DNA of 26,094 nucleotides from Atractiella rhizophila (GCA_021432655.1 MU271323.1:66851-92944), one strand, 5' to 3'. Shown: positions 9,559-17,846, counted from the first letter of the stretch. The notes: generated by a model not told the origin, from the letters alone. Made by a program: numbers and translations.

Positions 9559-11677
9559 TCAAGTTTCATGAGCTTCCCCCCAATCTATAGTATGATAACC
9601 AAAACGCTTTGACCTCAACACTTCCCACACAGCACCAAACCCAAGCTCAGGATGAACTGTTGCATCATGCCAGCCCAAGGCCACTTTAAGCAAGCTAAAC
9701 ATGCAAGAAGAGTCGTAGTTGTAGGAAATATCCCAAGGTAAACCAGCCAAAAGAGTACTGTCGTCCATCCTCACTTCACTCGCCATGCCATAGTCCAAAA
9801 TCACAACGTCCGGACACTGGTCAGGCGAAGTGGATGGACAGATGAGTTGATCTGGCCGTTGAAGCAAATCGCAGTGAACGATTCCTAATAGATAGATTAC
9901 TGCGATCCCAATCATACCCTTGGTGAACTATTCAAGTATCAGTCTAACGGAGACTGAAGAAAGACACTTACAAAAGCCTGCTGCTCCACCTCCGGCAAAT
10001 TGCGAACATCAGCTTCATGAAGACACGGGCCATCTACAAACTCCATCAAATGTGCTTTCGCTACAGTGCCATCACTCAATTGGACCTAGGCATATTCAGC
10101 AGGAAAATGCGAAGAGGGGGAAAGACGAACAGTGTAGAAACCATATGACCTAGGAATGATCGATCCTTGAAGCAACCGTAGGGTGGAATACGCCGTTTGC
10201 TCCTTCTCCATCGAGACATTGGCATCCGGCCAACGGCGTAGGCGTAGATCTAGCATTTCTGGACCGTCCCTGTCCCATGCGGGATATGGGAACAAACGCT
10301 CGTCGTAAATTTTGAGAACAAGCGGTGATGTTTCTCCCTCGACAAGAACTAGAAAAGTCTGGCCATGAAGTTCTCGTCCCGAACGCAATGAACGCAGAAG
10401 TTTGATGCGACGGCCTGCGTGAAGAGCGGTAAACGAAACATGAGAAGGTCGAGCTGATCGAGTTGTGTGAAACAGGATGTTTTGGTGCCACTGAACCATT
10501 GGATCATTCGTGGTGACAAGTAAAGGTGGGAAGTCGGCGGCTTTAGCAGTGGTCGACAACACAGACGAGATGCAGATTTCTGCGTCCTCAAAATCAAGGC
10601 TATCTAGCCAGCGTTCTCCATCTGCTATTCGATTACTGTGCCACTGTAGAATGCCGTCCTGGAATACAACGGGGTATGTCTGAATGTCGTAAAGCTCAAA
10701 ATCTGATAACAGGGCGTGTGAAGAGAAGTCTATATTCCAACCCTTCTTCGGGTCCCTAGCGCAACCAAGGACTTGTGTGTGTGGGAAGGAGGCCGGCCCT
10801 GTTTGGTTCGAGAATTCGGAAGTGTCCCATTTGAGGGAAATTATTTCGCTCAAAAGAGCAAGAACCTGGAAATACGGGCGAGGCTCAAAAGCGCAGTCAA
10901 GGTTGTAGGATTCCCGAAAGATGACTGAAGACTTGAAATCTAAAATGGCGTAGAACTGGTGTCGATCAGAATTGGTAGATAAGGATGTCAGAAACGAGCC
11001 CCAATTCCGCGCAACAGCACCAGGATTGTCCAGCGAGTCGTAATCTTCCCAATCTTCAGCCACCAGTGAGGGAGATGGCTGGTATGAGTCTTGATCAGTG
11101 CTCCTATCCAAAGTTACACTCACAAGGAGCACTAGAGTCATCAAAACGTGCTCATCCGACTTTATGCGAACAATGTCCAACGACGTACCTGCAGGACTTT
11201 GTGTGTTAGAATCCCTCAAAGAGTTGTATAAACGCACGAGAATCTCTGCCTATTACAACCGTCGGAGGAGCTGATGCCCTTGCCGGATACATGTATTGCA
11301 GAAACACCAGCAGGTCTTCAACAAGGTTGGCAGTTCGTTCCCAGCTGTTGCTTTCGTCAGTCCACTATTCTCATTGTACCATTGGCGTACCGTTCTGCTA
11401 CATTCCAAATGACAATCGTTTCCCAAAATGCAGCTTTGATGGTGAGGGGTAGTACTTCCAAGTCGATTCGAAAATGGTCTATGTACGTCACGTCAACATT
11501 CTTATCGGTTGCTCGTCTCGGCACCTCGTGGAAAAATGGCTCTAGGTGATTGCTTTGGAGCTGAGCATCCATTGTTACATTGTTCCAACTGCATCCGTTC
11601 GCTGAAGGTTGTTCACACGACGGAAGCGGGACAAGAAATGCCTTCAATCGAAAACTTGGGAAGCTGGCGCACTCCAT
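9559..11677 (-). CDS. Atypical fungal protein-kinase-like protein with long N-terminal domain, copy 1 (6 exons)
   Basis: GQTFLV, LVLKIYD (beta3 Lys), EKEQTAYSTLRLLQGSIIPRSYG, LMEFVDG, GIVHCDL and VVILDYGMA. Introns at 11351-11390, 11189-11237, 11079-11123, 10086-10130 and 9928-9971 give an open spliced frame. Confidence 0.82.
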
Positions 11678-12059
11678 GAAGAACTCTGTGCTGTGGAGCA
11701 GAATGCTAAGTATCACTAATCAAATAGATGTCAAGACAGAAGAGGAATAATGGAGGAAAGAGGAGCCTGAGCAGATAGGAAATGATGGGAACGCGAACCA
11801 AAGGTTTTGACGCCTGTGGAACAATGATGCTGAAGACAAAGCTTCGACAAAGCACTTCATCCACGGCCTTGTCAGTGACTTCGTCAAAGAATGGGAAAGA
11901 AGAGCCAGCAGACTCGCACAAAGATTTAGGACAAGGAACTTCATCAAGAGTATCATCTAAGGTATAAAATACCTCAGCTGCCCAGCTCCTGAAGTCGTAG
12001 AGCACGCCAGTCCAAGCCCACAGGTCAACGTACCAGTCCAAAGTCAGCAACTCCTTCGA

Positions 12060-13411
12060 ATGACGACGCCAAATCCAAATATCGAGTCTTATGAACCGGA
12101 TAAAGTGTACATCAAGCTTGGTAGGAGCCTGAGAACCAAACTCACGCCGCTCGATAAGAGACTTTGGGATGTGGTACCCGCCCAAACACCCCCACCAGCA
12201 TCCCCCACCACCGCGGACACGCCAGTCCCTTGTCTCCCAGTCCACTCTCCTCCACCAACTAAATTATCTTCCAATAGTGTCGCTCAGAAAGCAGACCAAC
12301 TGAAGCCCAGTCTAGTGCAGTTTCACCGGGTCCCATGGTGGGAATTCAAACGCCGCGGCGAGAAATTCACCTACGGCATCAACGAATTTTTGGAGTTGTT
12401 GAAGAAAGAAATCGAAATTGAACGGTTCGAAGAAGAAGGCGCGACTGGGCCGTTTGAGACAAAAGCAATCAACGATTTATTGGTCCCCGTACCAAACGCT
12501 ACTGCCACTTACGCCTTTCCGAGAACTGAGGAAGACGTGTCGTGCGTTATGCTGACAGATTATTTTCAAGGCTGATATCAGCAATAGTTTGCATGTCAAT
12601 TGTGACATTATCAGCCCAGTCTTTCAGGCATTGGGCAAGATAATACGTGCCATTCACCCAAACACCACCCGCAAGCAGAAAACAGATGTCAGCAAGTCGG
12701 TGATGCTAGAATGTCGCTCTGAGGTGCACAAGTCAACGCCGGATGGATTCTCTAGTGCGTAGTATGAGAACGAGACTGCAGACATCACTGATGTAATTCA
12801 TCTGATAGCTCGAGTTGACCTCCTGATTGGTTTTTTTACAGAAGATGTTTAGCTGCTATGACCATGGAGGAAAACCCAAAGGCGGAACCGCAGGCTAACA
12901 AATCTGAAGGCTCTTCCAAAGGAACTGAACCAAACAATATTGCTACATCCTTTTTAGAAGTCAAAGTAAGTCAGTCCTTCTCCTGCAGCGCAGAAAACTC
13001 AATGGTATCAATAGAAACGTGGTGTCGTCCATATTAAACATTTTTCAGAGATCCAGACTCAGTTTGAAAACTGGGGCAAACTCAAAAGGGACACATAAAC
13101 GTTATCTCGACAACTGGCTTACCACAATCTCAGCAGAGAATTCGCTTCGTTTCATCTACCCTCAAGTGCTGCGATACAACGAAACTCACAACACCAAATA
13201 TGGTGCATTGACGGATCATGATCTGACGACCTTAATCTATGTGGAACCGAGTAAAACGGGCAATTTAGATGTCTACTGGAGCCCGGTTCCACAGGACAAT
13301 GTGATATTTGCCTTCGCCTTCTACAATTGGCTCGCCTTGAAGGCGAAAGGACTGGATCACAATGGGCTTTTGAGGAAGCAACGTAAAGAAGTACTATTGC
13401 CTTTGAAGTGA
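12060..13411 (+). pseudogene. PD-(D/E)XK restriction-endonuclease-fold protein, copy 1, two frameshifts
   Basis: TEEDVS|NSL..IISPV, RVDLLIG, FLEVK|KRGV and PQVLRY..TKYGALTDHD. Introns at 12542-12581, 12755-12808 and 12966-13014. Relative to copy 2 it has a 1-bp loss at ~12850 (immediate TAG) and a 2-bp loss at ~13087. Confidence 0.7.
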
Positions 13412-16099: not shown

Positions 16100-16472
16100 G
16101 AAGTATTCTGCACCTGGAATCAGTATGCTACGTACCATCAATCAACTAACTCTCAAGATGTAAGAGGAAATAATGGAGAAAGAGTAACCTGAGCAGATAG
16201 GAAATGATGGGAAGGCGAGTCGAAGGTTTTGACACCTGAGGAACAACGACCCTGAACCCAAAGCTTCGACCTTATGCGACCTTGTTAATGACTTCGTCAA
16301 AGAGTGTGAAAGAAGAGCTAGAGGACTCGCACAAAGATTTAAGACAAGGAACTTGATCAAAGAGTATCTTCTAAGGTATAAAATACCTCTGCTGTTCAGC
16401 TCATAAGTCGTAAAGCACACCAGTTCAAGCCCACAGGTCAACGTACCAGTCCAAAGTCAACACCTCCTTCGA

Positions 16473-17846
16473 ATGACGACGCCAAACCCAAATATCGAGT
16501 ATTACGAGCCGGAAAAAGTGTACACAAAGCTTGGTAGGAGTTTGAGAACCAAACTCACCCCGCTCGATAAGAGACTTTGGGACATGATGCCGTTGCAAGA
16601 AACGTCGGAGGCACCTGCCACAACCACGCAAACAACGTCACTAGCAGTTCCCACGACACCGCACACGACTGTTGCCAGTCTTGCCACTCACTCTTCTGCA
16701 CCAAACAAATTTTCTTCTGCAGGGGTTGCAAAGAAAGCAGACGAACTGAAGCCAGATCGAGTGCAATTCCACCAGGTCCATTGGTGGGAACTCAAACACA
16801 GCGACGGGAAAGTCACTTACGGCATGGACGACTTTTTGAAGTTGTTGAAGACTAAAATTGACACTGATCGGTTCGAAGAAGAGAGAAATGGCGCGACTGC
16901 ATCGTTTGAGACAAAAGCAATCAACGATTTATTGGTCCCCGTACCAAACGCTATTGCCACTTACGCCTTTCCAAGAACTGAGGAAGACGTGTCGTGCGTT
17001 ATGCTTACAGATCATTTTCGAGACTGATACCAGCGTTAGTTTGCATGTCAATTGCGACATTATAAGCCCCGTTTTCCAGGCATTGGGTAAAGTCATATGT
17101 GCCATTCAACCATACACCACCCGCAAGCAGCAAGCGAATTTCGGCAAGTCGGTGATGCTAGAGTGTCGTTCCGAGGTACACAAATCAACAATCCACGGAT
17201 CCCCTGGTACGTAGTATGAGAATGAAACTGCAGTCACTGCTGACATCATTCATCCAATAGTGCGAGTTGACCTTCTCATTGGGTTTTTCGCAAAAGAGGT
17301 TTTGGCTGCAATGATGGAGGAAGGTTCGGAAGGGGAACAGGTGGCCAATAAACCCCAAAGTTCTTCCAAAGGAACTAAGGTCGAAGATATTTATACATCC
17401 TTTGTTGAAGTCAAGGTAATTTAGTGTTTTTCTCCTTCAGCGTGGAGAGAACTCAACCACTCGATTAGAAACGTGGGGTGGTCCTCATGGAGCATTTCAA
17501 AGACATTCAGACTCGATTTGAAGGCTGGGGCAAACTCAAAGGAGGGCGAAAACAAGATGATCTCAACAAGTGGTCCACCTTGATACCAACAAGCAATCCG
17601 CTACATTTCATCTACCCTCAAGTGCTGCGATATAACGAAGCTTATGACACAAAATATGGTGCGCTGACGGATCATGATCTGACAACCCTCATCTATGTGA
17701 AACCCTGTGAACTTGAGGGCAGGTTGGACGTGTACTGGAGCCATGTTCCACAGGAAAATGTGAGATTTGCCTTCGCCTTCTACAATTGGCTCGCTTTGAA
17801 AGCAAAAGGAATGGATCACATGGGGATATTGAGGGGACGAAAGTAA
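16473..17846 (+). CDS. PD-(D/E)XK restriction-endonuclease-fold protein, copy 2, apparently intact (4 exons)
   Basis: TEEDVS|VSLHVNCDIISPVFQAL, VRVDLLIGFF, SFVEVK|KRGV and FIYPQVLRYNEAYDTKYGALTDHDLTTLIYV show an E-D-ExK-QxxxY motif order. The gene itself is well supported; the fold is inferred from motifs. Confidence 0.7.

Follow-up and report, generated by a model that had tools for sequence, protein, structure and literature searches.

A tandemly duplicated, divergent kinase-like and nuclease-like gene pair in Atractiella rhizophila as a candidate split conflict module

The genome of Atractiella rhizophila (Basidiomycota, Pucciniomycotina) carries a kinase-like gene on the minus strand (K) and a nuclease-like gene on the plus strand (N) that lie head to head and have been duplicated together as a unit. 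We analysed this pair in one stretch of 26,094 nucleotides (GCA_021432655.1 MU271323.1:66851-92944), referred to here as the window, in whose positions the repeat coordinates are given. The ~4.4-kb tandem duplication is far beyond chance, both genes have been under long purifying selection, and K is transcribed and spliced. As judged from its predicted fold and catalytic residues, K encodes a real protein kinase, while the motifs of N, its structural neighbours and a profile alignment argue that N is probably a PD-(D/E)XK protein of the HsdR/Spok type. By analogy with systems that join both domains in one chain, the pair may be a split conflict module that combines a restriction-endonuclease-like protein with a kinase and serves as a toxin-antidote, allorecognition or defence system, a reading that we favour tentatively.

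The duplicated pair and its kinase

The two units listed in Table 1 are joined by a single blastn alignment (81.1% identity over 4050 columns, 107 of them gap columns), and a repeat search found 14 direct-repeat families of 74-91% identity with start-to-start distances of 4413-4459 bp. This agrees with an earlier note on this DNA, made from the sequence alone, which had proposed a tandem duplication of the unit with a period of ~4.4 kb. The head-to-head start codons, which that note placed ~380 bp apart, are separated by 382 bp in unit 1 and 373 bp in unit 2. We infer that the K1-N1 intergenic region, which is 82.8% identical to its K2-N2 counterpart, is a shared promoter. The locus holds two intact kinase genes, one intact nuclease-like gene (N2), one freshly broken nuclease-like gene (N1) and one old nuclease-like relic (N3). 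K1, N1, K2 and N2 correspond, in this physical order, to NCBI accessions KAH8923409 to KAH8923412, whose A. rhizophila records match the four predicted proteins letter for letter; the earlier note was right to call the genome basidiomycete-like. Compared over 9402-13700 and 13816-18150, the introns (73-93% identical) and the intergenic region are conserved between the units as much as the exons or more, and ~31% of synonymous sites differ between the copies (pS 0.31). The high identity of introns and intergenic DNA could reflect constraint on short introns and the promoter, patches of gene conversion or an effect of the method.

K1 comprises six exons (11677-11391, 11344-11238, 11188-11124, 11078-10131, 10085-9972 and 9927-9559) that join into 629 codons without an internal stop, and its spliced product is identical to P0002, the public K2 protein, at 502 of 625 aligned residues. 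K2 also maps as six exons, with introns at 15767-15812, 15615-15659, 15495-15549, 14504-14549 and 14346-14389. P0001, the 482-aa protein predicted publicly for K1, is short of 147 N-terminal residues because it begins at an internal methionine. The evidence for splicing comes from the contigs of X1, a public sequencing run whose kind is not on record, which we compared with window positions 7000-20000. These contigs skip canonical GT..AG introns across the region and are therefore cDNA-like. They bridge all five K1 introns (GT..AG) and at least two K2 introns, with three further upstream K1 exons spliced in them. Over parts of N1, N2 and N3, the X1 bins 11774-12207, 12642-13075, 16982-17415 and 18284-18717 are without cover, and we draw no conclusion from this run on N expression or N1 splicing.

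The X1 contigs also show many single-base differences from the window, for example 7 in 13965-14253 and 10 in 9020-9678, so that either the run stems from a different haplotype or strain, or K1 and K2 are mixed in some of its contigs. One contig of 1573 nt spans 8364-9898, running on the same strand from a dehydrogenase-like gene into the last K1 exon. A 45-nt intron is absent from it, and at 9377-9443 a non-canonical stretch of 67 nt (TT..AA) is skipped, 2 other letters standing there instead. The contig could reflect overlapping untranslated regions, read-through or an indel difference between strains.

Comparison of K1 with K2 gives a synonymous divergence (dS) of 0.40, a nonsynonymous divergence (dN) of 0.113 and a ratio of the two (omega) of 0.28, with 0.22 in the kinase half and 0.33 in the N-terminal half. 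The omega and dS values indicate that both kinase copies have been kept by selection.

The predicted structure of K is that of a kinase. The AlphaFold2 (AF2) model of P0002, built with the 17 paralogues, has a predicted local distance difference test (pLDDT) score mostly of 70-90 over approximately residues 320-625. Foldseek returned at least 500 PDB matches to this model at E <= 0.001, and those listed were all protein kinases or pseudokinases (best among those listed, YabT, 6g4j, E 5e-8; TMt 0.35-0.55). Similarly, 49 of the 50 weak matches between the K family profile and PDB sequences were kinases, in alignments that run from the hinge past HxD to DFG. The kinase motifs that the earlier note had read from the DNA (VLK, E, HxD and D[F/Y]G) are all present, and they are invariant or nearly so across the 17 paralogues. 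K408 (beta3, codon 14732-14730 in K2) and E445 (alphaC, 14621-14619) are invariant, and H524 and D526 (14294-14286) together with D551 and G553 (D551-F-G553, 14213-14205) are conserved in at least 90% of the 17. In K1 the catalytic loop reads HCD and the DFG position reads DYG. An APE-type motif is absent, PADLOC gave weak generic kinase matches only (PD-T4-6, E 0.002-0.017), and Pfam ABC1 matched 5 of 13 K proteins at E 0.04-0.3, in every case below the gathering score. Together, the model and the conserved residues show K to be a catalytically complete, atypical, ELK-like kinase.

In addition to the kinase domain, K possesses an N-terminal region of ~320-340 residues that is poorly modelled and that the earlier note did not describe. 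We considered whether K might be a full Spok-like protein whose N-terminal region is related to N, and rejected it: BLASTP of this region against N gave a best E of 0.40 and hhalign a probability of 0.1%, and the K family aligned to HsdR N-domains with P 0.5. The K alignment contains no conserved Cys/His cluster upstream of the kinase.

The nuclease-like gene and its broken copies

N2 is encoded by four exons (16473-16993, 17040-17206, 17261-17415 and 17469-17846) separated by introns of 46, 54 and 53 nt, which are typical of the locus. Its product, P0015, contains the motif set E..D..ExK..QxxxY as E215 (codon 17161-17163), D233 (17269-17271), E279-V-K281 (17407-17415) and Q332xxxY336 (17619-17633), with 51 residues between the lysine and the glutamine. 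In an alignment of the six family members the conserved core reads, in order, 'MLEC-SEVH' (E215), 'RVDxxIGFF' (D233), 'SF[VL]EVK' and 'YPQ[VI]L[RN]Y' (Q332..Y336). E279, V280 and K281 are invariant in all six, and the 'RVDxxIGFF' strand is present in four of the six protein models and is also encoded in the N1 DNA. QxxxY is found in three models (QVLRY in P0014 and P0015, QILNY in P0020), the other three ending or diverging upstream of it. At the level of sequence, to which this PD-(D/E)XK pattern applies, the order of the motifs is that of HsdR/Spok-type PD-(D/E)XK nucleases.

Structural and profile comparisons point in the same direction. The ESM Atlas holds its own model of P0014, the public N1 protein, and its top structural neighbour is a cluster annotated 100% as SPOK2_N (template modelling score (TM) 0.54/0.56, 244 aligned). 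The second neighbour is a cluster annotated 91% as Crinkler and 89% as Pkinase, and further neighbours include a second SPOK2_N cluster and an archaeal HSDR_N cluster (TM 0.34). The motif argument played no part in this search, which covered 7.7 million clusters. Atlas feature neighbours of K include clusters that combine SPOK2_N with a kinase. The Atlas also suggests distant look-alike clusters in other Basidiomycota and in Ascomycota.

For a profile comparison with HsdR, we drew 30 diverse N-domains from a phylum-wide family search, because a search with E. coli HsdR gave close relatives only (70-100% identity). With this template, hhalign placed SFVEVK of N on the catalytic vIELK strand (P 0.003, 27 columns), and the glutamine of the following N helix falls on the Q of QxxxY. 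As controls, the reversed template gave P 0.28, none of 60 block-shuffled templates reached the score, and the K family gave the P 0.5 noted above. PADLOC returned nothing relevant for P0015 and P0017. SPOK2_N (PF27653) had no match in the Pfam copy used, which may predate that family, and at E limits of 1 or 10 neither the 13 K proteins nor the 2 N proteins examined matched Crinkler (PF20147).

The earlier note had assigned the E..D..EVK..QxxxY motifs to the N gene. They stand in frame in copy 2, whereas copy 1 encodes all of them in different reading frames owing to two frameshifting indels. Relative to the N2 exons, N1 has gained a net 2 nt at ~12848-12861, in the segment that links the 'RVDLLIGFF' strand to 'EVK', and has lost 2 nt at ~13087. 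When P0015 is searched against N1 by tblastn, its conserved segments are spread over three reading frames, and stops occur; the segments are 'RVDLLIGFFTEDV*', 'LAAMTMEE..SFLEVK', 'KRGVVHIKHFSEIQTQFENWGKLK(RDT*)' and 'LDNW..FIYPQVLRY..'. The public model P0014 hides these two frameshifts. It does so by means of unusually long introns (73, 98 and 83 nt vs 46, 54 and 53 nt in N2) that restore the frame, so that the Asp strand is removed and the helix after ExK is read out of frame. The same annotation artefact, in which predicted introns hide the breaks, has been described for pseudogenised FuSpoks (PMC12693581).

After frame correction, N1 and N2 differ with an omega of 0.315 over 372 codons, and the segments between and beside the indels give 0.17-0.31. 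Such low values indicate that the breaks are recent, or that they are errors of the assembly. Judged by its sequence, N1 probably became a pseudogene recently or encodes a crippled isoform. The third copy, N3, is a degenerate relic and, like the N1 frameshifts, goes beyond what the earlier note had described. It consists of a piece resembling exon 1, interrupted by a stop in frame (18228-18437), a 'PQVLPY' segment that is a relic of QxxxY (18588-18638) and a C-terminal piece (18661-18790), and it lacks the catalytic middle. N3 is 66-69% identical to N2 by blastn, and its tblastn matches contain a stop.

Table 1. Features of the K-N locus in window coordinates
Feature	Coordinates	Strand	Evidence
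Duplication unit 1 (K1 + N1)	9402..13375		blastn + repeat families, ~4.4 kb spacing
Duplication unit 2 (K2 + N2)	13816..17834		blastn + repeat families
K1, kinase-like gene copy 1	9559..11677	-	spliced 629-codon open reading frame, X1 contigs
K1-N1 divergent intergenic region, 382 bp	11678..12059		ATG positions (K1 11677, minus; N1 12060, plus)
N1, nuclease-like gene copy 1 (P0014, 365 aa)	12060..13411	+	frameshifted vs N2 + paralogues
K2, kinase-like gene copy 2 (= P0002, 625 aa)	13986..16099	-	exact splice map
K2-N2 divergent intergenic region, 373 bp	16100..16472		ATG positions (K2 16099, minus; N2 16473, plus)
N2, nuclease-like gene copy 2 (= P0015, 406 aa), intact	16473..17846	+	exact splice map
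N3, degenerate third nuclease-like relic	18228..18790	+	blastn, tblastn

Paralogues and competing readings

Both families have further members, all of them in A. rhizophila, with 17 annotated K paralogues and 6 N paralogues. Only five N relatives of P0015 were detected, namely P0014 (N1), P0016, P0017, P0019 and P0020. We read their linkage from consecutive NCBI accessions, whose physical order is validated by the four accessions of the window. By this accession order, the N-K pairing recurs at a second locus on another contig, where the K protein P0005 and the N protein P0016 are consecutive (…550, …551), as are the N protein P0017 and the K protein P0003 (…562, …563). In total, four of the six N paralogues directly adjoin a K paralogue. 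The remaining kinases are clustered on five more contigs, some of them alternating with other genes (for example between …069, …071 and …073), and K and N copies are spread over at least 8 contigs. These counts speak against the two genes always occurring paired, as an N neighbour was detected for only 4 of the 17 K paralogues and none of the K family next to two of the six N paralogues.

P0016 (KAH8928551) is chimeric, residues 1-104 being the C-terminal exon of one N and residues 105-345 running from the N-terminus through 'YPQ' of the next, which indicates tandem N genes at the second locus that the annotator merged. P0019 and P0020 are partly near-identical to P0017, with aberrant or truncated C-termini, and may be a recent decaying segmental copy.

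Neither family was found outside A. rhizophila in word-index searches of 5.8 billion proteins, which are insensitive to remote homologues, and a complete HMMER search of 1.8 billion representatives, made for N alone, also found none. A representative search with P0014 returned four proteins at E <= 0.001, comprising itself, P0016, P0017 and a repeat protein of 1100 residues (E 4.6e-4); we regard this last match as spurious because it covers only a stretch of ~34 residues. Metagenome scans gave 236 pattern matches with the K alignment and 24 with the N alignment, and none of either set was confirmed.

In the conflict-module reading, K and N form a lineage-specific, fast-evolving two-gene cassette of A. 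rhizophila that was amplified by tandem duplication, with the shared ~380-bp region driving both divergent genes. N (~400 residues) would carry in its C-terminal half a core resembling that of HsdR and Spok, with a helix Glu, an Asp-initial strand, an ExK strand and QxxxY ~50 residues later, and K (~625 residues) consists of its N-terminal region and a C-terminal, catalytically complete atypical kinase domain. By analogy with Spok and with Crinkler/CR toxins, in which the domains share one chain, N would be the DNA-damaging effector and K would restrain or neutralise it. The pattern of decay fits a split conflict module, because the nuclease copies N1 and N3 have been disrupted or have decayed and both kinase copies are intact. 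An excess of intact kinases, both at the locus and genome-wide, is expected of a toxin-antidote system and equally of an independent kinase family.

The earlier proposal of a split, two-gene Spok/Crinkler version is partly supported, by its kinase partner, the motif set, the Atlas neighbours, the HsdR register and the second paired locus, and a nuclease fold of N is likely. The check by AlphaFold and Foldseek that the note had suggested recovered a kinase fold for K, and for N2 it gave a model that is unusable (six-sequence alignment, pLDDT 30.1, predicted TM score 0.17).

That failed model is one of several findings that weigh against a conflict module. For N, Pfam at E up to 10 gave no relevant match in any of the six members, and the N profile found only chance matches among PDB sequences (E >= 0.33). 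The hhalign probability for N and HsdR is only 10%, and all Atlas rows for P0014 fall under the bar, the Atlas model itself having a pLDDT of 0.46. The D-to-K spacing is 48 residues in N2 and 38 in the paralogues, compared with 21 in SPOK3 as described in PMC6660238. For K, a nearly invariant Gln533, preceded by an insertion of two residues, takes the place of the metal-binding Asn in the catalytic loop, and Pfam Pkinase matched only 3 of 13 K proteins, at E 0.098-0.31 and below the gathering score. At the level of the pair, no N neighbour was detected for 13 of the 17 K paralogues, and no K neighbour for P0019 or P0020, whose contig of 127,694 bp yielded no K at all. Selection on K and N is ordinary purifying selection without an obvious arms-race signature, and the N1 frameshifts could be assembly errors.

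The most probable of the alternatives, possible though on the doubtful side, is that the two genes were duplicated together and serve an ordinary function in the cell. K would then belong to a lineage-expanded family of atypical kinases acting in signalling or on small molecules, and N would be nuclease-like or would bind DNA, having a bidirectional promoter in common with one kinase subfamily, with no toxin-antidote relation between them. Lineage-specific kinase expansions are common in Basidiomycota. The 17 K paralogues outnumber the 6 N paralogues, and most kinases are without a detected N neighbour. The plain purifying selection on both genes (omega ~0.3) and the splicing and assembly of K in the cDNA-like run X1 are also in keeping with an ordinary role. 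Against it, a restriction-endonuclease-like protein is paired with a kinase at two loci, which mirrors the conflict systems described in PMC6660238 and PMC5289972. In addition, neither family was detected beyond one species in the searches of 5.8 billion and 1.8 billion proteins, and conflict genes typically multiply in tandem and leave pseudogene relics behind.

It is less probable, and in our view unlikely, that N is no nuclease at all, its motif pattern and weak matches being coincidental or those of a catalytically dead relative, so that two fast-evolving orphan genes were simply duplicated together. The lack of a significant family match and of a usable AF2 model for N would be expected in that case. 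Moreover, the hhalign match extends over only 27 columns, and the Atlas TM values of 0.34-0.54 derive from a model of low confidence, built on the copy-1 protein as wrongly annotated. However, no positions of the family are more strongly conserved than the motif residues, with E279, V280 and K281 invariant, and the hhalign register on the HsdR catalytic strand beats all 60 shuffles. The first structural neighbour among the 7.7 million Atlas clusters is a Spok N-domain family, reached independently of the motifs.

That the cassette is the cargo or machinery of a mobile element, a transposon-derived restriction-endonuclease-like nuclease with an accessory kinase spread by transposition, is very improbable: the copies are dispersed over several contigs and CR-type nuclease domains have been proposed to be of prokaryotic transposon origin (PMC5289972, PMC12693581), but a repeat search found no inverted repeats in 8000-19500, the 14 flanking open reading frames scanned showed no terminal repeats and no transposase, integrase or reverse transcriptase families, and the units abut head-to-tail as unequal crossing-over predicts. 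The flanking genes are ordinary, as the earlier note had stated. To the left lies a 6-phosphogluconate-dehydrogenase-type NAD-binding protein (Pfam NAD_binding_2, 8329-8943, E 1.7e-17), and to the right a glyoxal/galactose-oxidase-like gene at ~19856-22603, in which GO-like_E_set (22175-22603, E 6e-13) is over the cut-off and Glyoxal_oxid_N (19856-20296) below it. A separate Pfam scan of raw open reading frame pieces gave no match.

Within the conflict-module reading, stronger versions are harder to sustain. It is rather unlikely, on the analogies available, that the pair is a true selfish toxin-antidote element or driver, and meiotic drive is speculative. We would likewise give a small chance to the most far-reaching version, a natural split Spok/CR system that would be the first two-gene restriction-endonuclease/kinase toxin-antidote element and the first in a basidiomycete. 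In that version N2 would be an active DNA-damaging toxin, the linked K genes its antidotes and the surplus kinases orphan antidotes left after decay of the toxin, and the element would bias its own inheritance through spore or post-segregational killing, or act in allorecognition.

If the favoured reading is true, poison and antidote would be genetically separate, so that each could be expressed, mutated and titrated alone and protection in cis could be distinguished from protection in trans. The class of selfish or conflict modules would extend from Ascomycota to an early-diverging basidiomycete lineage, and the unequal decay of broken nucleases and intact kinases would offer a sequence-only signature by which further genomes could be searched for such elements. 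Should the functional reading prove wrong, the points on annotation still stand, as P0014 hides two frameshifts and P0001 lacks 147 N-terminal residues for which the cDNA-like contigs provide support.

Comparison with known systems

A nuclease with a kinase, which the earlier note had named as the combination of Spok and of Crinkler/CR proteins, is described as such in PMC6660238 and PMC5289972. As described for the Spok proteins of Podospora (Spok1-4) and the FuSpoks of Fusarium, an HsdR-like PD-(D/E)XK nuclease module occurs with an atypical, ELK-like kinase module, the Spok kinase being given both of these terms in PMC6660238. In SPOK3 the nuclease domain kills and the kinase domain protects, with K240A losing killing and D667A losing resistance (PMC6660238), and SPOK1 kills via DNA damage (PMC9972908). 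The position of QxxxY is also alike, at 51 residues past the catalytic lysine in N and 54 in SPOK3 (K240 to Q294), whereas the D-to-K distance of 38-48 residues in N differs from the 21 reported for SPOK3 (PMC6660238). Spok and FuSpoks also form families of many copies that diverge rapidly, and for FuSpoks predicted introns are noted to mask pseudogenised copies (PMC12693581), as is seen here. In contrast, Spok is described as a single polypeptide (N-domain/coiled coil, nuclease, Cys cluster and kinase) of ascomycete hosts, while the present domains reside in two divergent genes of a basidiomycete in Pucciniomycotina, and K lacks a conserved Cys/His cluster and has an N-terminal region of ~340 residues that is not similar to N. 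By the published description and the Atlas neighbours, which served for this comparison in place of Spok sequences, the pair falls outside the Spok family in its present definition.

Crinkler/CR toxins, for example of the Phytophthora CRN8 type, are described as likewise combining a nuclease of the restriction-endonuclease superfamily with a kinase proposed to regulate it, and this combination accounts for about one sixth of CR toxin C-termini (PMC5289972, summarising Zhang et al. 2016). These nuclease domains have been proposed to derive from prokaryotic transposon nucleases (PMC5289972, PMC12693581). K and N differ in lacking a Crinkler header domain and a secretion or translocation signal and in placing the domains in two genes. 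The pair is not a Crinkler because it lacks the header domain, and its products are apparently intracellular rather than delivered effectors.

HsdR (HSDR_N, PF04313) resembles N in its ExK strand and in the helix that comes next, where a Gln is conserved 14 residues past the Lys. It differs in that QxxxY lies ~13-17 residues past the Lys there compared with 51 in N, the match to N is only a 27-column local alignment of 10% probability, and N lacks helicase and translocase domains. Among the papers listed in literature searches, none described a Spok-like system split into two genes or drive in Pucciniomycotina, and none dealt with this gene family in A. rhizophila.

Two-gene toxin-antidote systems, such as bacterial type II systems and peel-1/zeel-1, differ from the pair in having no homology to K or N and in that the toxin-antidote relation here is only inferred. 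They resemble it in that the toxin and putative antidote genes are closely linked and pass on together, in the excess of 'antidote' copies and in the decay of 'toxin' copies. By analogy with the one-chain nuclease-kinase proteins, the K-N pair may work like both Spok and Crinkler.

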